From Schlesneria paludicola DSM 18645 (GTDB lineage: Bacteria > Planctomycetota > Planctomycetia > Planctomycetales > Planctomycetaceae), in assembly GCA_945869955.1 (NCBI GenBank), contig CAMBQP010000001.1, positions 12,745 through 76,744 of the forward strand: a DNA stretch of 64,000 bases. Reading direction: 5' to 3'. The notes beneath the pieces were generated by a model. The model searched no databases and had not been told where the DNA came from. It saw only the letters and a list, made by a program, of their open reading frames with translations. Of the stretch, positions 24,750-37,856 are shown in pieces. Both the position numbers and the translations under genes were made by a program. The stretch's first letter is position 1. Each line of letters opens with the position of its first letter.

Positions 24750-25349
24750 GCAGTCGCTCCCTTGTTCAACGGTGAAAGCGGGCGTCATGCCACACAAAAA
24801 TCAGGCTGATCGATCATCCCCGTCAATCGGAAATCCCCTCCAACATCGCTGTTGTCGCTGGTCTGTCTTCGAATTCGGTCGGTTCCATTCTGATCAGGAC
24901 TTGAATGAGCAGCATCCGGAGACGGAATCGCCCACAATCCCCCTTGACCCTGGGGCTGCTGATGACTGCAAGATTGATGGGGCGGCAACATCCTTCGAGC
25001 CATTTTCGAGTTGGCTTGCTCCACATCGGGAAATGTCTCATTCGAACGCGGCGAGCATACCATCACGCTGTTATGCCCCGCTAGCAGCATTGATACATGG
25101 ACGCGCCCCGTGATGATCCAAATCAAATTCGGCCAAGTGTCTACCCGGAACTCGTCGGGTGATGTCTGAGGTGTGATCTGAAAGAAACCCGGGCACGACG
25201 GATCCATCACAGCAGAGAGCGTGCTGATCGTCGCGGAAATGTTATACTCGGAGCACAGCGCGAACAATTTGCCGGGACGGGTGTTCCGGCAACCCCCAAC
25301 TCACGTATGGGGGATTGTTGCAGAAAGAGGATGTTCCGAAGGATCACCA

Positions 25350-27038
25350 ATGACTGACTCCGTAAAGATAAATCAAATTGCCGTTGCTTGTGCGTTTTTC
25401 GTCCTCCTGCAGCTTCAGGCTTTCGCCGCCGAAGGTCCGGTGGCACGCTGGAAACTGATGGGCGACACGAAGAACTCGGTGCCGTCGAGTCCCGACGGAG
25501 TGAATCATGGGGTCAAGCTGGCCGCAAAACAGGCCACGTTCGACGGGCTCGGCAGCCACATCACGGTTCCGGCTAACGATGTTTTGAAGCTGGGAAAAGA
25601 AGACTTCACGATTTCCGTATGGGTCGACTCCAACGGCATCACCGACGATGACCAGGGGGACATCCTGAGCCAGTTCGATCCGAAAACGCGGACCGGGTTT
25701 CATCTGAGCCTACGCAGCAATTCCGGCGTCACACATTGCCAGCCCAACGAGCGGCAATTGCAATTTGGTATCGACGCAGGGACCGAACCCCTCTTGACCG
25801 ACGAAGGTCGGCCAGGGAATTGCGTCTTTGGGCAGTCGATGGCCGTCAATGAGGGAACGCTGTACGTTGGCACCTGCGAGCCGGGAAGCGACCAGGCGGG
25901 GCATGTTTATCGTTATGACGGTCCGAACAACTGGATCGATCTCGGGACACCGGACAAAGCGAATAGTATCACGAGCATGGCTGCGTTTCATGGCGACTTG
26001 TACGTCGGCTCGGGAAAATACCGGCTGGGTGGTTCGAAGCTCTCTGAGTCAGAAAACCCGCACCTCGGTGGACGAATTTTTCAATGGGTCGATGGCCAAT
26101 GGAAAATGATCGGCCATTTTCCTGAGATGGAAGCAGTCGGCGGCATGGTTGGCTTTCGCGGAAAGCTCTACGTCAGTTCGCTCTATAAACCCGCTGCGTT
26201 TTTCCGGTATGACGGAGACGGGAAATGGACTCCGCTGGAAGTCCCGAACGGCAAACGGGTCGAAGCCCTGGGTGTCTTTAACGATTACCTTTGGGCGACA
26301 GGTTACGACGAAGGCCACGTCTATCGCTACGACGGCACGGAATGGACCGATCTCGGCAACGTCGGCGAAAAAGAGAATACGCAGACGTACGCCTTCTCGA
26401 CTTATCAAGGGGCGCTTCAAGTCGCCACATGGCGCACGGGCAAGGTATTTGCCTGGCAGGCACCCACTCCGGCAGCGGCGAAGGATGTTCTCGGCGGGCA
26501 TTGGCAAGATCGCGGCCGGTTGGGGGAAGAAATGGAAGTGATGGGAATGCTGGTCCACAACGGCAGTCTCTACGCTGGAACCTTACCATTGGCCCAAATG
26601 TATCGGTATGACGGAGGGAAAACATGGACCCCGATCAAACAGCTTGATACGACCGATGTCGAGTACCGCCGCGTCTGGACGATGGCCCAGCATCAAGGGA
26701 AACTGTTCGCCACCACGTTACCTTCCGGCCATGTCTGGTCGCTGCAGACCGGAACTGTCGTGACTTGGGACCAATGGAAGCAAGTGGCGAATCACGACCG
26801 GTTTCATCTCGTCGCGCAACGGCACGGTGACACGTTGCGGCTATTCGTCGGTGGAAAAATGGTTGCAGAATCGAAAACCGCAAGGACGAGCGAATTAGAT
26901 CTTTCCACCGATCACCCTTGGCAGATCGGTGCGGGGAGTGGCGATTTCTTCCACGGTTCGCTGGCCGACGTACAGATTTTCCGCCGCGCGTTGACCGCCG
27001 AGGAAATTCGAGTCCTGGGCCAGGCTACACGGGATTGA
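25350..27038 (+). CDS. Secreted protein with a split LamG/concanavalin-A-like domain enclosing a beta-propeller
   Basis: Signal peptide; LamG halves (ATFDGLGSHITVP...DFTISVWV and LFVGGK...WQIGAG...FFHGSLADVQIFRRALTAEEI) flank repeated GxLYVG...YRYDG blades. Confidence 0.8.
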   Translation: MTDSVKINQIAVACAFFVLLQLQAFAAEGPVARWKLMGDTKNSVPSSPDGVNHGVKLAAKQATFDGLGSHITVPANDVLKLGKEDFTISVWVDSNGITDDDQGDILSQFDPKTRTGFHLSLRSNSGVTHCQPNERQLQFGIDAGTEPLLTDEGRPGNCVFGQSMAVNEGTLYVGTCEPGSDQAGHVYRYDGPNNWIDLGTPDKANSITSMAAFHGDLYVGSGKYRLGGSKLSESENPHLGGRIFQWVDGQWKMIGHFPEMEAVGGMVGFRGKLYVSSLYKPAAFFRYDGDGKWTPLEVPNGKRVEALGVFNDYLWATGYDEGHVYRYDGTEWTDLGNVGEKENTQTYAFSTYQGALQVATWRTGKVFAWQAPTPAAAKDVLGGHWQDRGRLGEEMEVMGMLVHNGSLYAGTLPLAQMYRYDGGKTWTPIKQLDTTDVEYRRVWTMAQHQGKLFATTLPSGHVWSLQTGTVVTWDQWKQVANHDRFHLVAQRHGDTLRLFVGGKMVAESKTARTSELDLSTDHPWQIGAGSGDFFHGSLADVQIFRRALTAEEIRVLGQATRD

Positions 27039-27085
27039 GGCCGATCCCCGTTGAGCACTGTCCCTGTGTTCGCCACGTCTACTCG

Positions 27086-27371
27086 GCGAAAATGCCGGTA
27101 AGGCGATTTTAACGCAAAGACGCCAGGACGCAGGGACGCCAGGAATACGAAAACAGCAAATGGGATTTCGCCCTTCTCTCTTCCTCTTTCTTGCGTCTCT
27201 GCGGCTTGACGCCATTGCGTTAAATTTTCCGCTCATTTCCTGTGACCCAATCGTGGATCTATGAGGGCGATCTGATCGCGAAAAGGGGGTTGCGGATTTT
27301 GCATGGATCGGGATTTTCGCTTCTGCACAAAAATCGGTAAGTGAATTCCGGTTCGGAGAGATGGGCAAGAC
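27086..27371. repeat. Copy 1 of the hairpin-containing island repeat (core hairpin 27107-27225)
   Basis: Aligns by eye with 34761-35054 and 35719-35939. Left arm TTAACGCAAAGACGCCAGGACGCAGGGACGCCAGGA at 27109-27144; complementary right arm at 27188-27223. Confidence 0.95.
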
Positions 27372-27697
27372 TGTGGTTGAAGACGATTTCTTGGGTCAAG
27401 ACTTTCTGTGAGGATCTGGAGAATCCGAGTTGCTGAGCATCCGCGTCAAGAAGGACAAAAGTTCGATCAGAATCGGACTCATCAAGCTGCAGACGAGAAT
27501 TCGGCAGTGAGCGTGCGCGCGATGAGGGTCAAAGTGGCTCAACAGTTTTGGTGACCTTCCCACAGTAGCTCTCACGGCGTCAGCTCTTCCATCAGCCGTG
27601 CAGGCGGGGTTTCTGGAGTCTCTTGATGTTGAGGTTCCCGGACCGGATAATCCGGCGGCAGCGTTCTCTTGTAACGAACTGAAACAGGACTGGCCAC

Positions 27698-28756
27698 ATG
27701 GCAGCCGATCAGCATCTCATCGGGTACCCCGACGGGTTTTGCCTATTTGAGAGCGGGTCTCTTTTGCCGGAGGCATGGCAGTTGGCATCCGGTCAAGGGC
27801 CCGTTTGGATCTTTAATCCCGCCATCATCGAGGCCACGGACGGTTATTTGCTCGCTTATCGCGTCGTCCTACACGACGGTCGACGACAGATGGCAGTCTG
27901 CCGACTGGGCCGCAATCTTCAAGTCCGGCCCCAGTCCGCGATTCCACTGAGCGACTTTCTGGTTTTGCCTGCCGGGTGGTATCCGGAACAGGGGCGGAAT
28001 TGGTTTGCCGACCCCCGCTTGATTCGCTGGCAGGGCCGGCTGCTGGTCCACTGGAATTCCGGGATGCACAAGCCGGCGAATCACCAGTTTGTTCAAGAGC
28101 TGGATTCCGAAACACTGACCCCGATCGGAACTTCACGAGAATTGCGGCTGGTTGCCGGGCAGGCCCCAATCGAAAAGAACTGGGGCCTTTTCGGGTGGGG
28201 TGACGAGTTGTACGGTCTCTATTCGCCCGCCCCGCTTTGCATTATTCGACTGGAAAACGACGATGGTCGCATCTGGTCATTCGCCAAGGTGCAAACCCAT
28301 CACTCCCATCTCGCCGGTTATATCAAGCATTTCGGGGCGCTGCGCGGAGGATCGCCACCAGTCTTGCAGGGGGGGCAGCTCATCGCGTTTTGTCATTCTC
28401 AGTCTCAAACCTCGCAAGGAATTCGGTATCATCCCAGCGCGGTCAGGTTCGCTGGTCCTCCTGATTTCAAGCCCAACGCATACCTTGCCCAGCCGTTGGA
28501 GCTACCAAATCCGTTCGCGGATCGATTGATTCAGCCGCGGTTAAATCCACAGGTCGCTGAGGTTATCTATCCATCGGGAGCTGTCTTCGCGAAGGGACGT
28601 TGGCTGGTGAGTTATGGAATCAATGACGAGCATTGTGCGCTGATGACGTTCGATTCCTTCGAGCTTGATCGTCATTTGCGGCCAGCCAGAGGAGCCACGA
28701 GGGCGTGGATCGGATCAGTCCTTCGGCGAAACCTTCCCGGATGGTTTGCGGGCTGA
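27698..28756 (+). CDS. Five-bladed beta-propeller glycan enzyme (GH130/GT91-like fold)
   Basis: Motifs FNPAI, DPR, EKNW, LRGG, FCH, IYPSG and SYGIND; located in a glycosyltransferase cluster. The family call comes from motif memory only. Confidence 0.65.
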   Translation: MAADQHLIGYPDGFCLFESGSLLPEAWQLASGQGPVWIFNPAIIEATDGYLLAYRVVLHDGRRQMAVCRLGRNLQVRPQSAIPLSDFLVLPAGWYPEQGRNWFADPRLIRWQGRLLVHWNSGMHKPANHQFVQELDSETLTPIGTSRELRLVAGQAPIEKNWGLFGWGDELYGLYSPAPLCIIRLENDDGRIWSFAKVQTHHSHLAGYIKHFGALRGGSPPVLQGGQLIAFCHSQSQTSQGIRYHPSAVRFAGPPDFKPNAYLAQPLELPNPFADRLIQPRLNPQVAEVIYPSGAVFAKGRWLVSYGINDEHCALMTFDSFELDRHLRPARGATRAWIGSVLRRNLPGWFAG

Positions 28757-28990
28757 GATCTGCGGCGCCGGGAAACCCCAATCAATGCGGTCATCAATGT
28801 CGAATCGGACTCGCGAGCAGCGTTGGATGGCGGTTTCCCGCGAGACGGCATTGTTGGGAAACGGGAAGAGAGAAACGGAGATTCGCGTCGTCGTGACCAG
28901 AAAAACCGTTCACAGTCGGACTCGATCCCCTGCCCGTTTTCGCGATGGCCAAATTGAGCAACAGTTCAAGCGATACCGACAGCCACGCGG

Positions 28991-30109
28991 TCATTGTTCC
29001 GCAAACGCCGCCAACAGTTGCTGAATCACCTCGACCGGAGGGATTTCCGTGATACAGATCGGGGACGCATGCACGCACTTCCAGCCACATTCATAACAGT
29101 CGAGGGGGCGGTTTAACCATCTCTGTCGCGGGCTTTTCGACCAGGGGGCAACATTGCCGAAATTCCCCCCGCCAATCAGCACCACAATCGGTTGATCGAG
29201 TGCCGTCGCAATATGGGCTGGTCCCGATTCCGGCGCAAGCAGGATCCGTACTGAGGCGATTTCCTGAACCAAATCGGGAATTGTTGCAGGGAATCGCCAA
29301 GTGACCGAGTTCAGCCCCGCCGCTTCATTCGCGCAGTCCCATACACGGATGTCGGTGCCCGGGGGGACACAGAATTCGACCGGCATCGGATGTTGTGCAA
29401 TAAACCCCTGGATCACTGTCGCCAGCAGTTCAGGAGGGTATTGGCGAATTTCATCACTGGCTTGGGGACAGACCAGCAGTACGGTGCGAACCTCAGTGGC
29501 TCGTACCGTGAGTCGCGAATGGATTTGCTCAAGAGGGACCTCAAATCCCCGAACAGAGCTGACGACACGTCGGTGTGCTTCGAGCTCTTGACAGTGGCCA
29601 ATCAGGACTTCGGGATACGGAGACAAAACTGCGTCAGGAAAGGGGACCGCTGCCTTTCCGAGGTAGGATTCCTTTTTCTCGCAAGCATAACGGACTGAGG
29701 CGGGTAACAGTCGCATCATGGCATGCAGATAATCGGAGGGATGGTGTCGCAAACAGACGAGCTCATCACAGGAAAGGCCAGAAAAACGGGAATGGTACTT
29801 CCAGAGAAACGTGACAAATTCAGGCCAGAACGAAATACATGAGATGGGTAACACGAGGAAATCGGTGCGAGGGAACTCAGCCCGGTACAAAGATTCCGCA
29901 ATCGGCGAGATGACCAGCAATGACTGATCCTCACCCACGCGATCAATCAACAATCGAATCGCCCCAACCGCCAGCACGGCATCGCCAATTCGATCCATCT
30001 TGATGATCGCCAGGCGGTAGTGCTTTCTGCGGCGGCACAGGACTTGGTTCCACAAGAACGCAATCCTGATCAGTAGCCAATATTTCCAAGGCCCAATTTC
30101 CAGACTCAT
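28991..30109 (-). CDS. GT9 glycosyltransferase (ADP-heptose:LPS heptosyltransferase-like)
   Basis: IIKMDRIGDAV and ESGPAHIATAL motifs; the ATG at 30109 overlaps the upstream TGA (ATGA coupling). Confidence 0.88.
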   Translation of the reverse strand: MSLEIGPWKYWLLIRIAFLWNQVLCRRRKHYRLAIIKMDRIGDAVLAVGAIRLLIDRVGEDQSLLVISPIAESLYRAEFPRTDFLVLPISCISFWPEFVTFLWKYHSRFSGLSCDELVCLRHHPSDYLHAMMRLLPASVRYACEKKESYLGKAAVPFPDAVLSPYPEVLIGHCQELEAHRRVVSSVRGFEVPLEQIHSRLTVRATEVRTVLLVCPQASDEIRQYPPELLATVIQGFIAQHPMPVEFCVPPGTDIRVWDCANEAAGLNSVTWRFPATIPDLVQEIASVRILLAPESGPAHIATALDQPIVVLIGGGNFGNVAPWSKSPRQRWLNRPLDCYECGWKCVHASPICITEIPPVEVIQQLLAAFAEQ

Positions 30110-31287
30110 TCGATTTCTTTTCCTGCACTGACGGACGCCTCGGTCAGCCAATCTCTGACAGACGCCGCCGCGATTTCTGCGAGAGATTCGAGTCGATCAA
30201 GGGAAATCGTCGCGGCAGCGGAGACCCCCGAAATGATCTCGGAAACTTCGGAGACGCTGTTGACGCGTGGCAAACCGAATTGATCTGCCAAACCGGTCAA
30301 CTTGCCACTCCGGGCGACAATCAGAACTTTGGCACCGATCCAGACCGCCAAAAGTGCCCCGTGATAGCGGCTGCTGATCACCTTCGCAGGCCACTTTAAA
30401 AAGTCTACCGGACTTGTCGAACACGTCGACTCCCTATCAAGATTGAAAATCGTTAACCGCTGACGCAGGCTTTCAGAAAATCGCCGCCACCAGTCATTTT
30501 CCATACCTGGCAATAATCGGGGATCCTGTACCAACCAGAACGCTCGTTCCGCAGGAAGTCCCTGCATGAGCACCGGCAGGGCATCGATCACATTTTCTGT
30601 TGGCTTTTCAAAATTGAACAGGAAACCAATTGCGTGGGGATCGGGATTTCGTTCCTGTCCCGCGAATCGTTCCCGAAACAGAATATTCGCAAGATCGGCG
30701 GCGCTGGTCGTTCGTCCTGGATTTGCCTCGTCCAACCACTTTGCCGATCGTTCATCGCAAGCCCAACAATGCCGTACCGACATGAATGCCCGGCGGAATT
30801 GTGGTCGCTGCATGACGAACGAGTTTTCGACACCAATTCCCAAAAAATCCATCGGTTTGGCGAGCACCTGACACATGAACCACTCCTGATCCAATTGGCA
30901 TTCAAAAAATCGGCCGCTGTCCGTTTGGAAGGGGGTGCCACCCAGTCCGAGCCAGCAATCTGCCGATCGAATTGCGTTCCAACGCGCATCGATCGTATAG
31001 GGGAGCCAGGTGATTTCCGGATAGCGTTTGGCCAGCAATTCCCAATTTTCCGGTACACAACAGGTGAATCCCACCCTGCGTCGTTGACGGCCAATTTCTC
31101 GCAAAAATCCTAATAGCATGAAATCGTCACCGGCATTTCCGGCACCCCAGAATGCATGGCCGATGTGGACTTTTAAGGGGTGATTCCCCCTTCGTGCCGG
31201 TTGACGAAGGTGGTACGACATCAGTTGTCTGACGCGAATATTCAGCCGAAACCGCCAACGTTCAAGAATGGACTGCATGTTCAGCAC
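30106..31287 (-). CDS. Polysaccharide pyruvyl transferase family protein
   Basis: GAGNAGDDFML, GLGGTPFQ, GIGVE, ADLA, SSRYHG motifs; translationally coupled between the GT4 and GT9 genes. Confidence 0.8.
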   Translation of the reverse strand: MLNMQSILERWRFRLNIRVRQLMSYHLRQPARRGNHPLKVHIGHAFWGAGNAGDDFMLLGFLREIGRQRRRVGFTCCVPENWELLAKRYPEITWLPYTIDARWNAIRSADCWLGLGGTPFQTDSGRFFECQLDQEWFMCQVLAKPMDFLGIGVENSFVMQRPQFRRAFMSVRHCWACDERSAKWLDEANPGRTTSAADLANILFRERFAGQERNPDPHAIGFLFNFEKPTENVIDALPVLMQGLPAERAFWLVQDPRLLPGMENDWWRRFSESLRQRLTIFNLDRESTCSTSPVDFLKWPAKVISSRYHGALLAVWIGAKVLIVARSGKLTGLADQFGLPRVNSVSEVSEIISGVSAAATISLDRLESLAEIAAASVRDWLTEASVSAGKEIE

Positions 31288-32626
31288 CTTCGGTATCGGG
31301 CGTTTCCATCGACGGCGAATCCACGGATTCTGCGAGTACCCGACACTTTTGCAAAAATTGTCGGGTACTGTCTCGCCAACTGATGACGGCCGAAGGGTCC
31401 CAGTCGCTCACTGCAGCGAATGCCCCCGTTTGTTCACGATCGATGACGATCTGAGCGAGCGTTGAGGGGGAGCCAATGTCGAAATAGAGGCAGGATTCTC
31501 CCCCGACTTCGCGATGGACAGGGATATCACTGGCAAGCACTGGCAGACCGTTCCGGAGACCCTCGATCAGTGGTAAGCCAAATCCTTCGGCGTGCGAGGA
31601 AAAAACCAGTGCTCGTGCATGCTGGTAACAGTACGCCAGATCGGCATCGCTGGCGTTGGTGAGCAGATGCAGTTCATGTCCAAAACGGGGGTGATGATGG
31701 ATGCGATCTAACAGATCTCCACACAACCACCCCGGCCGACCGACGATGCAAAGGCGTGTTTGGGGACAACGGTCCCAGATCTGCTCAAAGGCATCCAGCA
31801 AATAGTTGTGGTTCTTGCGAGGTTCCAGTGTCCCCACTGATAAATACGGAGGGGGACCGGGGGTCTGGGCAAAGACTTGACGAGCGGAGTCGCTGATCTG
31901 GTCCGTGGAGGGGATACCCGAGGCGATCAAGTCGAGGTCCGAACCGAGCCGAAAGAAATCGATTTTGACCGCTTCACCCGCCCTATCTCCCAAGAGTTTC
32001 TTCGCGTACTTTCGCAATTCGTTTTGCACCGTTTGCGAGATCACCATCAGCACGTCGGCATGCTTCAAGTAATGGTCCAGGTATTGTTGAAAAATCGATG
32101 TCAGGCCACTGGGAAAAAACTGCGGATGGGTGATGGGGAGCAGGTCGTAAACGACAATTCCTGTTTGTGCTCTCTGTTGATGGGCTTGTTGCAACAACCT
32201 CCTCAGTGATGGAGTCCACCAGACATCCAGCGAAATGACCAGGTCATCCGACTGAAAATGAATCGCCGAACTCTGCCAGGCGAGCGATTCCTGCTCCACG
32301 ATCGAAGAGATCGATTGAAGGGTGCCACGTCGGAGGAATCGCAGAAGTCGTTTGAGCAAGCTGTTGCCGCTGTGAAACGATTCCAGCGTCCGGGTCACCG
32401 GTTTTTGCGGATTCCCTGCCTCAATACGCCGCTCCAATGCCGCCAGCCAGCGTGTACCATCGTAACAACGCCAGCGGTGTTTGATGATCGGAATGGATGT
32501 CACCCCCAGTTCGGCTCCGACGGCAATCGCTTGCCGAGCCAGATTCCGGGAAACGCGCTGGATTCCCGAGTTATTCCCCGAAACAAGCGTATTCCCACAT
32601 TCCAACAGGATTCGACCAACGTTCAT
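31262..32626 (-). CDS. GT4 (glycosyltransferase family 1 domain) protein, mannosyltransferase-like
   Basis: SGIQRV, VYDLLPITHPQFF, VGTLEPRKNH, EGFGLPLIE, ASDIPVHREV. Confidence 0.92.
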   Translation of the reverse strand: MNVGRILLECGNTLVSGNNSGIQRVSRNLARQAIAVGAELGVTSIPIIKHRWRCYDGTRWLAALERRIEAGNPQKPVTRTLESFHSGNSLLKRLLRFLRRGTLQSISSIVEQESLAWQSSAIHFQSDDLVISLDVWWTPSLRRLLQQAHQQRAQTGIVVYDLLPITHPQFFPSGLTSIFQQYLDHYLKHADVLMVISQTVQNELRKYAKKLLGDRAGEAVKIDFFRLGSDLDLIASGIPSTDQISDSARQVFAQTPGPPPYLSVGTLEPRKNHNYLLDAFEQIWDRCPQTRLCIVGRPGWLCGDLLDRIHHHPRFGHELHLLTNASDADLAYCYQHARALVFSSHAEGFGLPLIEGLRNGLPVLASDIPVHREVGGESCLYFDIGSPSTLAQIVIDREQTGAFAAVSDWDPSAVISWRDSTRQFLQKCRVLAESVDSPSMETPDTEGAEHAVHS

Positions 32627-33164
32627 GAAAGCCCTTGCCTCACGGAATTCGCGAAAAAAAAAGAATTCAATTGAAGAGGGGATTTTATAGGGCCAAGGGT
32701 GATGGCCGATATGGGCGTCCTCAACACCCCTGTTGGATGCCTTGCATCAATCGGAGTTTTACGGGGGGATCGCATCAAATTCAATGCAGGTCTTTTTTGC
32801 TGGGAATTGTTGGATTTCCGCAATCTTCTGGGCTTTTTGAAAAAAAGCGAAGGCAAAGAGAAGGCCATTCAATTCATGATGGGTGGTTGCTAACATGCCA
32901 CGCTGTGTTGTTGGATGAGCGTGGTTCGAAGTTCGGGTGTGTGATGTCTCTTGATGATACCGATTTTGGCATGCTTCAGAGGCGTGTCAATAATTTTTTG
33001 CGAGAATACGGCAACCAACAGGGATCAACGGTGCTCCGTCACCATCCGGAAGTTTTCGCCATCAAGTCGACCAACTACTGCAATCTTCGCTACCTGATGT
33101 GTCCTCGAGGCGAACCAGACATCATGGAGCATGATCTGGGAAATCTGCCCAAGGAACTCTTTCA

Positions 33165-33194
33165 AAAGATCCTCGGTGAAAGATCCTCGGTGAA
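33165..33194. repeat. Perfect 14-bp tandem duplication (AAAGATCCTCGGTG x2)
   Basis: Copies at 33165-33178 and 33179-33192, followed by AA. Confidence 0.9.
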
Positions 33195-33294
33195 GTCAAG
33201 TTTTTCTCAAATTCCGGCGGGTTCCACGGATTTGGTGGCCCGTTACCGTTCGACACGAACGAAGTGAAAACAATGGTTTTTGCGTCTTTGCCGT

Positions 33295-33326
33295 CAGTGG
33301 TCTGGCAAAACAGTGGTCTGGCAAAA
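33295..33326. repeat. Perfect 16-bp tandem duplication (CAGTGGTCTGGCAAAA x2)
   Basis: Copies at 33295-33310 and 33311-33326. Confidence 0.9.
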
Positions 33327-33406
33327 AGATTCCGCGATTCCCATAATTTTGCCTCAAACCCGTTTCTTTTGATGGAATCGGTTACAGCACAAGCAGGATT
33401 CCCCAA

Positions 33407-34513
33407 TTGATGAACAGGCCACTGCGGATCGGTATTGATGGTACGCTGTTTCGAGAGCAACCTCGGGGGCACTCGCTGTATGCCATGCAGCTGTTTCATG
33501 AGCTCCCCTCATTTCTCCCGGATGCCGAGTTTTTTCTCTACACCCCATCACCCATAGAGCTCACGAAGTTTCCCGGCAAGCTCACGCAACGGGTTGATTC
33601 AAGCTGGTTTGCGAAGTCCCCGGTTGTCTGGCAAAAACTGGCTGAAGGGAAGCTTTGCCGAGCCGATGCACTCGATGTCTTTTGGAGCCCTTATGTCTTT
33701 TTGCCGAAACTCCCTCGGGATCTTCCTACTGCTGTGACGCTCTACGATTTTGTGCATGAGGTGACACCCGATTCTTTCCATTGGCTGCATGCCCTCGCGT
33801 TTCGTCTGTTCTTCAAACGAGACCTGAAACGGGCTCAATCGATCATTACGATTTCGCGCGGAACACAACAGAGAATTCGTCAGCAATTTGGCCGTGAATC
33901 GATTGTCGTGCTGCCGGGGTTGGATGCGCGGTTCCAAAAGCCAACCGATGCACAACGGGCAGACGTTCTCCAAGAATATGGCCTTGATCGTCCCTACCTG
34001 CTGAATGTGGCGACATGGGATCCTCGTAAAAACGTCGCGACGCTGATCAAGGCCTTTTTGGCGATGAAAGAGGCGAATGAATTACCGGATTATCAATTGG
34101 TACTGGTCGGACGGAAAGAAAGCCGATTTGCCGAGATCGAGCAGTTGTTGCAGCGCGATGGCGGTCAGCACCTTCGGCACCTCGGGTACATCTCCGATGA
34201 TCACTTGCCGGCCCTGTACGGGGGAGCGAAGCTGTTTGTGTTTCCTTCGTTATACGAAGGGTACGGTATGCCCGCGATGGAGGCCCGCGCTTGCGGAACT
34301 CGCGTTGTGACCTCCGATCTCCCGGAAATCCGTGAAGCGGGGGGCGATGATTCAATTTACATCGAGCCAACCGCAGCAGGGATTCGGGCAGGAATCCTGG
34401 AAGGAATGGCTCGCAATTCACAAGGACCGCTCCCACTTCCTGTGGCTCCCAGTTGGCATCAAAGTGCCCGGATTCTCGCAGCTGAGCTTCAGCGTCTCGC
34501 GGGCCGTATTTGA
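33407..34513 (+). CDS. GT4 glycosyltransferase (mannosyltransferase-like)
   Basis: RIGIDG, TLYDF, VATWDPRKN, FPSLYEGYGMPAMEA, SDLPEIRE. Confidence 0.92.
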   Translation: MMNRPLRIGIDGTLFREQPRGHSLYAMQLFHELPSFLPDAEFFLYTPSPIELTKFPGKLTQRVDSSWFAKSPVVWQKLAEGKLCRADALDVFWSPYVFLPKLPRDLPTAVTLYDFVHEVTPDSFHWLHALAFRLFFKRDLKRAQSIITISRGTQQRIRQQFGRESIVVLPGLDARFQKPTDAQRADVLQEYGLDRPYLLNVATWDPRKNVATLIKAFLAMKEANELPDYQLVLVGRKESRFAEIEQLLQRDGGQHLRHLGYISDDHLPALYGGAKLFVFPSLYEGYGMPAMEARACGTRVVTSDLPEIREAGGDDSIYIEPTAAGIRAGILEGMARNSQGPLPLPVAPSWHQSARILAAELQRLAGRI

Positions 34514-34602
34514 GTTTGGTAGTAAGAATCAAAATGCTGTCAGGCACCCTGATCGACGAAAAAAAACAAGGGGAAAAACACGAGATACTGGAATGATTTT
34601 GG

Positions 34603-34624
34603 TTGGCCGATAGGGTACGGCCAA
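34603..34624 (+). terminator. 7-bp stem hairpin downstream of the GT4 gene
   Basis: TTGGCCG-N8-CGGCCAA; no clear U-tract. Confidence 0.3.
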
Positions 34625-34660
34625 TAACAGGTGTGTGCGGAGCGAAAGCCACTCAAGCAG

Positions 34661-35054
34661 CCGCGAAATCACACGTTTTTCGTGATTTCGCGGCCGGAAT
34701 TCACGAGAGAACGCGATGAAGTCGCAGCGACGACGACGACGTCCCGCCCCCCTCTTTGATAGCGAAAACGCCGGTAAGGCGATTTTAACGCAAAGACGCC
34801 AGGACGCAGGGACGCCAGGACTACCAAAACAGAAAATGGGATTTCGCCCTTCTCTCTTCCTCTTTTCTTGCGTCTCTGCGGCTTGGCGCCATTGCGTTAA
34901 ATTTTTCGCTCATTTCCTGCGACCTGATCGTCGATCCATGGGGGCGCGATCTGATCGTGAAAAGGGGGTTGCGGATTTTGAATGGGGCTGGCTCGATTTT
35001 CGCCTCCTCACCAAAATCGGTGGATGAATTCCGGTACGGAGAGAGGGGCAAGAC
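34661..35054. repeat. Copy 2 (longest) of the island repeat: 12-bp inverted repeat at 34661-34693 plus core hairpin 34783-34902
   Basis: CCGCGAAATCAC-N9-GTGATTTCGCGG; left arm 34785-34820, right arm 34865-34900. Its left flank is shared with copy 3 and its right flank with copy 1. Confidence 0.95.
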
Positions 35055-35265
35055 CAACACTCGTCAGGTTCGGGCCTTTATGCGCATTGCAATCAGGGCA
35101 GGCGAGAGCCAGGTTTTCCTCCACATCTTCACCCCCATGCTGCCTGGCGCGGATGTGTTCGATGTGAAACCAGAAAAATGCTGCTGCGGACTGCGGTAAC
35201 AAACAGTATTCGCATCGATTATTGGCTCTCTGCCGAACGAATTCGCGTAATGCGTTGTTCATCAT
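35008..35265 (-). pseudogene. HNH endonuclease, C-terminally truncated by repeat copy 2
   Basis: CEYC...HIEHI...ENLALACPDCNAHKG core in residues 1-70; the last 15 codons are read from the repeat, which begins at 35054. Confidence 0.8.
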
Positions 35266-35531
35266 TCGACCGCTTGTCGTTTCAGAGAGGCGCGCGCTTT
35301 TGATTGAAGGATCGTGACGAAGTGAAAGACCGATCGGTAGCTTTCGTATTCAACTTGTTCTTCCGCTGTGAGCAGGCCTTCGTTCGCTTGATCGGCCAAG
35401 TAATCCAAACGCAATTGCGCCGTTGGAGCAGATTGGAAACTGGCGACTCGCGCGGCAACTTCGGGCGTCAAGCATTCCATAAACGGGTCGAGAACACTGT
35501 TGGTGATTTCGAAGGCGGAGAGCGATGGCAT
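35262..35531 (-). CDS. Small acidic helical protein coupled to the HNH gene (putative antitoxin)
   Basis: 89 aa; AGGAAA SD; ATGA overlap with the HNH start; LDYLADQANEGLLTAEEQVEY resembles antitoxin-like partners of HNH toxins. Confidence 0.7.
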   Translation of the reverse strand: MPSLSAFEITNSVLDPFMECLTPEVAARVASFQSAPTAQLRLDYLADQANEGLLTAEEQVEYESYRSVFHFVTILQSKARASLKRQAVE

Positions 35532-35567
35532 GTCAGATTTCCTGCTAATGTAGACGATTCCTCCAGT

Positions 35568-35596
35568 ATTATGACCGCCGGGGAATCGAGAAACAA
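35568..35596 (-). promoter_or_regulatory. Possible sigma-70 promoter for the antitoxin-HNH pair
   Basis: Minus strand TTGTTT (35596-35591), 17-nt spacer, CATAAT (35573-35568); 37 bp upstream of the ATG at 35531. Confidence 0.35.
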
Positions 35597-35626
35597 CGGT
35601 CCGTTGCGAAAGCGCAACGCGAGTTT

Positions 35627-35939
35627 GAAATCATCTGTTTTTCGTGATTTCGCCGCCGGAAATCGCAAGAGGATGCGATGAAGTCGCAACGACGACCACG
35701 ACTCTTCGCGTCGTTGATAGCGAAAATGCCGGTGAGTCGATTTTAACGCAAAGACGCCAGGACGCAGGGACGCCAGGAATACCAAAACGGAAAACAGGGT
35801 TTTGTCTCTTCCTCGGATTCTTCCTTGAGTCCCTGAGGCTTGGCGACTTGGCGTTAAATTTTCCGCTCATTTCCTGTGACCCAATCGTGGATCCATAGGG
35901 GCGATCCGATCGCGAAAAAGGGGAATACGGATTTTGAAT
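35627..35939. repeat. Copy 3 of the island repeat (core hairpin 35741-35859)
   Basis: Left arm 35743-35778 is identical to copies 1 and 2; right arm 35822-35857 has diverged but is still complementary. Confidence 0.95.
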
Positions 35940-35954
35940 TGATGTGATGATGTC

Positions 35955-37085
35955 TCACGTGCCTCGCGGCGGCGATCTAAAGCCGCTGAATAGTTCTTGG
36001 ATCTCCACTCTGGATGGCGCGATCATTTTTTTGTCGTCTATCCAATAATGGAAATCTTGTTGAATGACGTGATATACGTTGGCGGAAACTCTGTAAATGT
36101 CCATGAGACATGAGTTGAATAGAAGGATGGCTTCGCACTTTCCATGCTTTTCAATGAGGGAAGCGAGTGCGATCTCATCGCCATTGTTGGATTCGCTGTG
36201 CAACAAACGGCCGCCATACATGAACATTTGAATGATTTGACGTCGCGTCGCGGTGGTTTCTTGAGCAAACACGGGCGGCGAGTCAATTAACTTAACGAAG
36301 ACGTCTCTCTCCCGTTCAATCTACAACCGCTTTAATTCCTCACCAGTGTGATCGAGGTAGGCGTCGCAGGCTTTCAGTAGTAGTTTGTCGCCGGCATGCA
36401 ATTGTCGAAAGTAAGCAAGAACGCAAAGTGTTTCCGCATCGTTCGGGAAAATCGCCTCAAGCAATTCTACTTCGCGGGTTTCTTGAGTAGCAGACGCGAT
36501 GGATTTCGGAGAGTCATACCATTCGCTGTGATAAATCCGACGCACCACATCGAGAAACTGAGAGATTGTATTTGCTTTTTTTAACGTCCATTCGGCTTCG
36601 TTTTTGGGAGACGTCGGCCCCAGTTGAATAACGCTTTTGGGATCGCCGAAAATGACCGTGAACTCCTGCCCGTTAACATGACGCATAATATCAATCATTG
36701 TCCATGGAGTTCCGGTTTCATCTTCGATGTAGCCGTACGGTGCGCTGAGGATGTGGAATCCAGTCTTTTGTTCAGTTGCATACGAATGAAATTGTTTTAG
36801 GTCATCGGTTGACGCTTCGACGAACGCGTGGCGGTATCCGATTAAATCAGATTTAAAGCTGGTTTTGCTTAAAGATATTGTTTTTACCGTTTCGTCAAAC
36901 CCACGTGGATGAAATCGAGAATCGTCAGCATTCAAGATTGACAAAACGTCAGCAATTTCGGTCGTCGAAAGCTTTTCCCAGTCTAGACAAAGATGACGAT
37001 TGAACAATGGAAGTGGATTTTCTTTTCGGCGGTCAAAACATTGAACCGCAAGTCGAACGTAGGGCAGATTTTTTGGAGTTGTCAT
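35955..37085 (-). pseudogene. AT-rich hypothetical gene interrupted by one in-frame TAG (36321-36323)
   Basis: ORFs 36321..37196 and 35955..36272 are in the same frame and joined by 16 open codons after the TAG (…EELKRL*IERERDVFVKLIDSPPVFAQ…); ATG at 37085. Confidence 0.75.
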
Positions 37086-37292
37086 CTGAATCAGATTCCA
37101 TTCGCTTAACTGGGACTCAAGTTTAGGCCATCCGGGAAGGCAAATTCGCCACGAACCAGTCCAGTACTTGATTGTTTTGCACTGTCGCAATCCCATTTTG
37201 AGTTGACTCTTTGCATGTCGAATTCATCAGACAAGAGAGGATTGTGAAGTTTTGTTATCCTTTCCATTGGAGACAAGGGGACACTAGAATTA

Positions 37293-37856
37293 TTGGCCCT
37301 GAATCCAGCGATCAGCATTTGCGTCCTGACCAAACCGATGTACTCGCGTGATCCACGTTTGCACTTGGATTTTCGGCTTCGCGATCCATCCGGATTGCTG
37401 CTGACAAACGATTTACAAATTCATCTTTTGCAGTTGTCAAAACTGAGCAAGACAGTGCAAAATGTGTCTCAGGCCAGTTCGATTGAGAAATGGGCCTATT
37501 TTCTGGTAAACGCCGCCAATCTGTCGTTGAATGGTATCGAGGGATTGTTTCCCGAAGCCGAATTCAGCGAAGCGGCAGGAGTCCTGGACATGATTTCACA
37601 TAACCCTGAACAACGGCAATTGTATGATGCACGCCTAAAGCTACAGCTCGACGAAGCCGCACGGCTGGAAGGGGCGCTCAATCAAGGCCGTGAGGAAGGC
37701 CGTGCGGAAGGGGAGTTGTTTGGGCAGATCATGCTGCTGCAAGAGCTTTTGGGTATCGCCGAGTTAACCAGGGACGAATTGACAAACCTCAGCGAAGTGC
37801 AATTGTCCGAAGTGACTGAGGAATTCAAGCGTCGGTTGAGAAATCGCAGCGTCTAA
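37293..37856 (+). pseudogene. 5'-truncated Rpn family (PD-(D/E)XK nuclease family transposase, PDDEXK_2) gene
   Basis: PAISICVL, LQIHLLQL, IEKWAYFL, LYDAR and the GREEGRAEG tail are present. The N-terminal catalytic region is absent: an in-frame TGA lies at 37245 and the upstream residues do not resemble the family. Confidence 0.8.

Follow-up and report, generated by a model that had tools for sequence, protein, structure and literature searches.

Miniature inverted-repeat transposable elements (MITEs), such as Correia of Neisseria and the ERIC/IRU sequences (enterobacterial repetitive intergenic consensus/intergenic repeat unit) of enterobacteria, are short (110–200 nt), non-coding, intergenic and multi-copy, consist of long hairpin-forming inverted repeats and vary in copy number among related species. 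The hairpin repeats described here share these properties. Three of them (copies A, B and C) lie between positions 27,086 and 35,939 of a 64,000-nt stretch of the Schlesneria paludicola DSM 18645 assembly (hereafter the window; contig C1:12745-76744 of the genome under study, G000; 6.25 Mb, 394 contigs, 94.8% complete). As in MITE families, a longer relative with a gene between the same arms exists, on contig C487 of the sister genome G014 (90–95% nucleotide identity to G000), and a Flavobacterium sequence (L030) has the same layout. We consider the hairpins to be probable MITE-like, gene-less derivatives of small cassettes that encode a GxxExxY nuclease, and to be old, decaying and locally recombined. 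They would relate to these cassettes as MITEs do to insertion sequences, as internally deleted forms whose arms are the element ends. They differ from MITEs in that neither a target-site duplication nor a clean empty site was found, in that the enclosed gene encodes a PD-(D/E)XK protein of ~120 amino acids, GxxExxY, and no known transposase, and in arms that are built of tandem 8–9-nt units and whose termini recur across phyla.

Four other described systems are comparable in part. Repetitive extragenic palindromes (REPs) and their hairpin-forming doublets (REPINs), which are associated with REP-associated tyrosine transposases (RAYTs), are likewise dispersed and extragenic with tens of copies and doublet-like hairpins, and one Y1 transposase gene stands beside a copy of our family. 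The attC sites of integrons, including those in clusters of attC sites lacking integrases (CALIN), are similar in hairpin length, their RYYYAAC/GTTRRRY ends resemble in part those of copies A to C, and some small genes elsewhere also lie between two complete hairpins. Intervening sequences (IVS) of 23S rRNA that bear an open reading frame (ORF) have a long inverted-repeat stem around a small ORF and also occur as gene-less stems; our hairpins, in contrast, are intergenic and have GxxExxY/PDDEXK_3 as the partner gene, and no 23S_rRNA_IVP (PF05635) or four-helix-bundle gene was found in G000. The short tandemly repeated repetitive (STRR) sequences of cyanobacteria are hairpin-forming short tandem repeats whose unit number varies among copies. 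The arms described here are also arrays of short units of variable number, but they are inverted, their termini and flanks are unique and conserved, and they are accompanied by a partner gene family. No paper describing these hairpins was found when the literature was searched with the sequences and the family names.

Hairpins with tandem-unit arms and GxxExxY nuclease genes

The first-pass annotation of the window had described three co-oriented non-coding repeats at 27086-27371 (A), 34661-35054 (B) and 35627-35939 (C). These were confirmed, as were their cores (27107-27225, 119 nt; 34783-34902, 120 nt; 35741-35859, 119 nt), the core ends TTTTAAC and GTTAAAT, and the core-to-core spacings of 7,676 and 958 bp. 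The repeats are composed of the following parts:

27086..27371, + strand: copy A, with left flank GCGAAAATGCCGGTAAGGCGA, core 27107-27225, the family-wide right flank and a right extension of ~170 nt; its G014 orthologue has the same extension
34655..34764, + strand: module 1 of copy B, with two hairpins, one of them GAAATCAC..GTGATTTC; a fragment of a ~1-kb dispersed repeat (nhmmer)
34762..35054, + strand: hairpin part of copy B, core 34783-34902 and right extension, the latter terminating within the 3' end of the HNH frame
35617..35722, + strand: module 1 of copy C, with the module-to-hairpin junction as in B
35720..35939, + strand: hairpin part of copy C, core 35741-35859 and a shorter right flank up to GGATTTTGAAT

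The left arm was the same in all three copies (38/38 nt) and contained GACGC three times at an 8-nt period. Paired without gaps over 36 positions, the stem of copy A had 28 Watson-Crick pairs, 2 G-T pairs and 6 mismatches. The mismatches reported at arm positions 12, 18, 20 and 32 correspond to positions 14, 20 (a G-T pair), 22 and 34 counted from the first T, and were present in A, B and C. Since the copies were mutually 85–89% identical (copy B matched copy A at 89% across 293 nt), such shared mismatches are expected from common descent. The right arms varied while the left arm was constant, and the changes are therefore non-compensatory.

A wider family was located on the G000 contigs with BLASTN, nhmmer and a covariance model. 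It comprised at least 37 loci on ~30 contigs and on both strands, namely 26 full hairpins and ~11 single arms; the covariance model gave 58 matches. The repeats are not due to chance, since the pattern searched in reverse as a control gave 0 matches and nhmmer E-values went down to 1e-80. The 26 full copies were spread over 22 contigs, mostly as singletons, with some local clustering on contig C1 (five copies, all on the + strand, where ~0.5 were expected). Each arm starts with the terminus TTTTAACGC and typically continues with three to five or more 8-nt units in tandem (nnnGACGC/nCGCAAAG), and the opposite arm is the inverse. Arms of 3 to 6 or more units were seen, and the elements on C180, C335 and C351 were longer. 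Conserved across copies were ~20 nt of left flank (GGAAATGCCGGnAAGAnnA), ~45 nt of right flank (TTTCCGaTCATTTCCTGCGACCnGATCGTGGATCC) and the loop motif GGATTTTGCC. The ends varied within the family (GTTGAAA, GTTCAAT, GTGAAAT), and mismatch positions differed among members, with near-perfect stems on C184 and C315 and in the cross-phylum loci L036, L048 and L099. No Rfam family matched the repeat region at E ≤ 1.

The hairpins are strongly linked to GxxExxY genes. A link between similar palindromes and these genes, which the first-pass annotation had put forward, was borne out at several loci. GxxExxY (TIGR04256, which is Pfam PDDEXK_3) is a PD-(D/E)XK protein whose function is listed as unknown and for which many transfers between divisions have been described (PMC3424549). 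On G014:C487, a complete family hairpin precedes a cassette in which a left and a right arm enclose a leader and a GxxExxY gene; at the orthologous position of the genome under study (C176), one left arm and a partial leader are all that is left. Searches with tblastn found arms that bracket a GxxExxY gene in Flavobacterium (L030), a hairpin-gene-hairpin arrangement in genome G040, and complete hairpins flanking GxxExxY in genome G007. When ORFs within the loops of cross-phylum hairpins were inspected, only the Flavobacterium GxxExxY stood out. Inverted repeats with 8–9-nt periodic arms lay no more than 350 nt from 18/30 GxxExxY genes of relatives, 13 of them bracketing the gene, as opposed to 2/167 control genes. 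The unit sequence varied by locus (CACGGAG, CTTCGTG, CACAGAG, CGCGAAG, CGCGGAT, CACGAAT), and the arms on either side of a given gene matched each other. GxxExxY genes were present in 24/24 sampled congeneric species with 1–11 copies each. No solved structure was matched by the protein sequence, nor did the protein fall into any PHROG or PADLOC family.

The only GxxExxY gene of the genome under study lies at C34:1700-2600 (L177), with complete hairpins (CTCTGTGC...GTGGTTAAC) of a different unit family on both sides.

If the hairpins are gene-less derivatives of GxxExxY cassettes, either the cassette nuclease, acting in trans, or host recombination at the arms may have dispersed them. We also regard a broader reading as possible but less likely, in which octamer- or nonamer-armed hairpins in general are the ends or attachment sites of undescribed, very widespread mini-cassettes that carry only GxxExxY, with units matched to the lineage. 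GxxExxY would then recognise the folded or cruciform arms, and movement would proceed by break-and-copy or by integration at resident hairpins. Such integration would yield the hairpin-gene-hairpin arrangement, and the thousands of gene-less hairpins across phyla would be footprints of the cassettes.

The family extends well beyond this genome. The covariance model was run on 24 sampled congeneric species and on genomes of other families in the class. It found the family in 17/24 species, with 0–69 model matches each (0 to ~35 loci), and also matched three genomes from other families of the class. The exact 18-mer terminus TTTTAACGCAAAGACGCC was found at ≥118 loci, with ~17 chance matches estimated. 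Among the matches listed, these loci belonged to Verrucomicrobiota, Acidobacteriota, Chloroflexota, Chlamydiota, Bacteroidota, Proteobacteria, Planctomycetota and others, and nearly all of them had the same hairpin architecture. A Schlesneria sp. metagenome-assembled genome contained 115 nt identical to the G014 orthologue of the C34 copy.

Age, decay and folding of the hairpins

At least 10 of 20 hairpin loci of G014 were colinear with hairpin loci of G000; some of the loci compared were at contig ends. By this comparison, most copies are older than the species split. Copy A has an orthologue in G014, located 3' of the LamG gene and with the same right extension, and copy A therefore predates the split. 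Within G000 the ~170-nt right extension was common to A and B only. Synteny was lacking in more distant species, and for the locus at C1:5161 a genus-wide search found none beyond G014. Mobility of the family is inferred only from the differences between species in copy number and location.

Orthologous hairpins of the two genomes were 85–98% identical, with flanks at ~95%. Among the stem pairs that had changed between them, 9 still pair (2 via double changes), whereas in 19 the pairing itself was altered. Inserted copies would thus be long-lived and decay in a roughly neutral way. Across 26 copies and 38 stem positions, 73% of the cells were Watson-Crick pairs and 8% were G-T. Folding as a selected property was evaluated on a 20-sequence alignment against 500 shuffles. 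The covariation score of 0.167 was equalled or exceeded by 132/500 shuffles and the 92.7% of paired cells by 178/500. RNAalifold gave a covariation term of +0.23 kcal/mol. Pairing is explained by the sequence conservation of both arms, and evidence of covariation is absent. The suggestion of the first-pass annotation that the hairpins are structure-selected signals was not upheld by this check.

A host function would have the hairpins kept as RNA or DNA structures, for instance as a transcript stabiliser, RNase III site, insulator or terminator. In agreement with such a role, all 26 full copies were intergenic as judged with a self-trained gene caller, predicted stems were stable (−30 to −85 kcal/mol), the flank and loop motifs described above were conserved, the left arm was invariant in the local subfamily, and G-T cells outnumbered A-C cells (81 vs 46). 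However, the copies followed no orientation rule relative to flanking genes, lying between tandem, convergent and divergent genes. Between tandem genes, 3 hairpins were oriented with gene direction and 8 opposite to it, and the copies at C1:5161, C1:9368, C85 and C14 lie between divergent gene starts. Orthologous stems gather pair-breaking changes without covariation, copy number among congeners goes down to zero, and no Rfam family matched. We regard a host function as unlikely. An intrinsic terminator in particular, a GC-rich stem and T run at gene 3' ends, does not fit the copies between divergent starts and the lack of an orientation rule.

The hairpins might instead have arisen locally and be immobile, through slipped-strand expansion of 8-nt microsatellites and fold-back copying in place. 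The variable number of units per arm, a one-unit block shift between orthologues (C34 vs G014) and the tandem hairpins in G014 are in line with this. Against it, the 18-nt terminus is identical and the unit order the same in many phyla, the copies share ~40 nt of conserved non-repetitive sequence to either side, and the arms are associated with one gene family. Local origin in this sense seems very improbable.

In G014, three and two hairpin copies occur nearly head to tail at C401:2928-3912 and C672:4132-4392, respectively. The contigs of G000 end at these tandem-hairpin sites; therefore, the repeats break assemblies and copy numbers are underestimated.

Several observations weigh against a descent of the hairpins from GxxExxY cassettes followed by neutral decay. 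The left arm was invariant in A, B and C (27107-27144, 34783-34820, 35741-35778) and in the G014 orthologue of A (C407:5917-5950), despite ~10–15% divergence elsewhere and diverged right arms, and this exact variant was confined to G000 and G014. The invariance hints at a sequence constraint beyond neutral decay; gene conversion or a sequence-specific constraint could be the cause. The excess of G-T over A-C cells mildly favours folding of one strand. The number of GxxExxY genes was uncorrelated with that of hairpins, with 2 genes and 69 matches in G014 and 11 genes and 3 matches in G007. At the 20 loci compared between G014 and G000, neither a filled-versus-empty site nor a target-site duplication was found; besides the cassette-versus-remnant site, the sole polymorphic site was a replacement by a fragment of another repeat. 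To our knowledge, no PD-(D/E)XK protein as small as GxxExxY acts as a lone transposase. The direction may also have been the reverse, with a gene inserted into an existing hairpin instead of deleted from a cassette.

Y1 transposase genes and the module 1 repeat

The genome under study contains six or more Y1_Tnp genes (IS200-like) and many fragments, which are multi-copy and decaying. REPIN-like mobilisation of the hairpins by one of these IS200-like or RAYT-like transposases was considered. On C42 an intact Y1 gene of 233 amino acids has a family hairpin 30–35 nt past its stop codon. On C18 (19205-19400 and 22394-22600), two direct units of an arm and a truncated Y1 N-terminus (~27 codons) lie 3.2 kb apart, a site shared with G014:C637. 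Yet only one of ~26 full hairpins stood beside an intact Y1 gene, where ~0.04 were expected by chance, a figure that is suggestive only, and Y1 adjacency was not consistent. The Y1 genes on C107 (930-1300) and C37 (1-290) were flanked by a different hairpin repeat, GGGGACAGGCACC...GGAGCCAGTCCCC, which occurs in tandem beside Y1 genes and in dozens of copies genome-wide, and also at 2001-2240 of L180 (G014:C487). This repeat is probably the true REP of these Y1 transposases. Moreover, the arms of our family are direct tandem units (GACGC three to five times) and not self-palindromic REPs, they have no GTAG-type tag, and the cross-phylum hairpin loci were without a Y1 gene, save for one fragment. 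The link of the hairpins to Y1 genes is weak, and mobilisation by a Y1 transposase appears improbable.

Y1-like sequence is also found in the repeat from which the first part of copies B and C derives. Both begin with module 1, a piece of ~100 nt and a fragment of a different, ~1-kb repeat. Module 1 was found at 30 loci with nhmmer, mostly inside the ~1-kb repeat, which has ~15–20 copies. This repeat contains three conserved hairpins and, in the opposite orientation, a decayed frame resembling a Y1 transposase. Examples in G000 are C96:1080-2100, C117:5304-5997, C125, C173 and C268; C268 has three copies ~3.45 kb apart, and some co-oriented arrays occur on short contigs. A full copy of this repeat had no Rfam match. 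Copies B and C share the module-to-hairpin junction, and therefore the composite was formed once and duplicated afterwards. We propose that copy A is ancestral, and that B and C represent one composite, which recombination would have duplicated within a horizontally acquired segment rich in repeats.

The accessory island and the integron reading

The segment that follows copy A is accessory, as had been proposed in the first-pass annotation: window 27391-37295 was absent from G014. In L140 of G014, the parts that aligned to window 24800-27390 and 37296-37746 are separated by ~1 kb of different sequence and a complete rpn gene. The features of the region besides the repeats are:

25221..27038, + strand: LamG-domain gene (Laminin_G_3 match), the left anchor; its stop is 48 nt before repeat A
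27391..37295, no strand assigned: accessory segment absent from G014, with the glycosyltransferase cluster, copy B, P89-HNH, copy C and two unknown frames
27698..34513, both strands: glycosyltransferase cluster (Pfam, NCBIfam), with GH130-like, GT9, pyruvyl-transferase-like, GT4, an unknown frame and GT4
35008..35531, − strand: overlapping pair between B and C, P89 (35262-35531) and an HNH endonuclease (35008-35265; HNH E 1e-11)
37293..37856, + strand: rpn (PDDEXK_2/TIGR01784), 5'-truncated at the right border; full-length in G014 (≥264 amino acids)

The accessory segment of 9.9 kb starts 19 nt past the extension shared by A and B and ends within rpn. With borders 19 nt past repeat A and inside rpn, the hairpins do not bound the island. 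The LamG protein upstream of repeat A had 94% amino acid identity in G014 and 63–70% in four other species. The GH130-like gene was in none of the others among 33 congeneric species. The last GT4 gene was 89% (nucleotide) and 91% (amino acid) identical in G007 and G022 only, species that are otherwise ~69% identical, and no hairpin and no module 1 was found on the G007 and G022 contigs with this gene. In both species the GT4 gene (33250-34521 in the window) is followed by a 93-nt piece of the GT9 gene (window 29892-29983). From this piece and the high GT4 identity it follows that the glycan cluster is mosaic and horizontally exchanged.

Between B and C, P89 is a frame of 89 amino acids, and the HNH frame has 85 residues, to which homologues in relatives align only up to about residue 69–80. 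The 3' end of the HNH frame was replaced by the right extension of repeat B. The P89-HNH pair was conserved at 6/9 loci in relatives. Genomes of the genus carry as many as 8 copies of it, and G014 has none. The pair is reminiscent of toxin-antitoxin or small selfish modules. We rejected B-[P89-HNH]-C as a general hairpin-bounded cassette, as the pair occurs without such hairpins at nine other loci.

Between copy C and rpn (window 35955-37196, − strand) there are two unknown frames without a family match. When an in-frame TAG was read as a residue, there was still no Pfam match for these frames.

The first-pass annotation had read the three repeats as attC-like recombination sites, recognised as folded single-stranded DNA, that delimit two mobile cassettes (7.7 and 0.96 kb) of an integrase-free array. 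Several features invite this reading. The core is 119–120 nt long; GTTAAAT fits GTTRRRY, and TTTTAAC is one base off RYYYAAC; B and C are directly oriented and 958 bp apart with a small gene pair between them; the region is accessory, and cargo does vary between relatives. Elsewhere, GxxExxY genes lie between two complete hairpins, an arrangement expected if a circle had integrated at a resident hairpin. The array did not withstand the wider comparison, however. A search with the TIGR02249 profile (cut-off 265 bits) found no integron integrase in the 94.8%-complete assembly; the best match, at 79 bits, was ordinary tyrosine recombinase-like. A CALIN needs no IntI. The copies nevertheless form no array, being REP- or MITE-like singletons scattered over ~30 contigs and both strands, and many have near-perfect stems without fixed extrahelical bases or an unpaired central spacer. 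Covariation did not exceed that of shuffled alignments. The supposed cargo between A and B consists of six genes on both strands, and the genes between B and C run opposite to the repeats. The island borders lie off the hairpins, the GT4 cargo of G007 and G022 lacks them, and the P89-HNH pair is found elsewhere without hairpin flanks. An integron-type cassette array is thus very unlikely here.

The comparisons with relatives indicate that the island is real and horizontally acquired, and that the hairpins neither delimit it nor travel with its cargo. As derivatives of GxxExxY cassettes, the hairpins would mark recombination-prone junk at the island edge instead of cassette boundaries. For the window this means that the island of glycan genes is horizontally acquired but is no integron-like array of cassettes. 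Hairpins built in this way, with spurious low-complexity ORFs, occur in genomes of many phyla, where the repeats break assemblies and generate false genes, so that their recognition would be a gain for annotation. Taken together, the hairpins and GxxExxY are a candidate, open to testing, for a minimal selfish element of a new kind.

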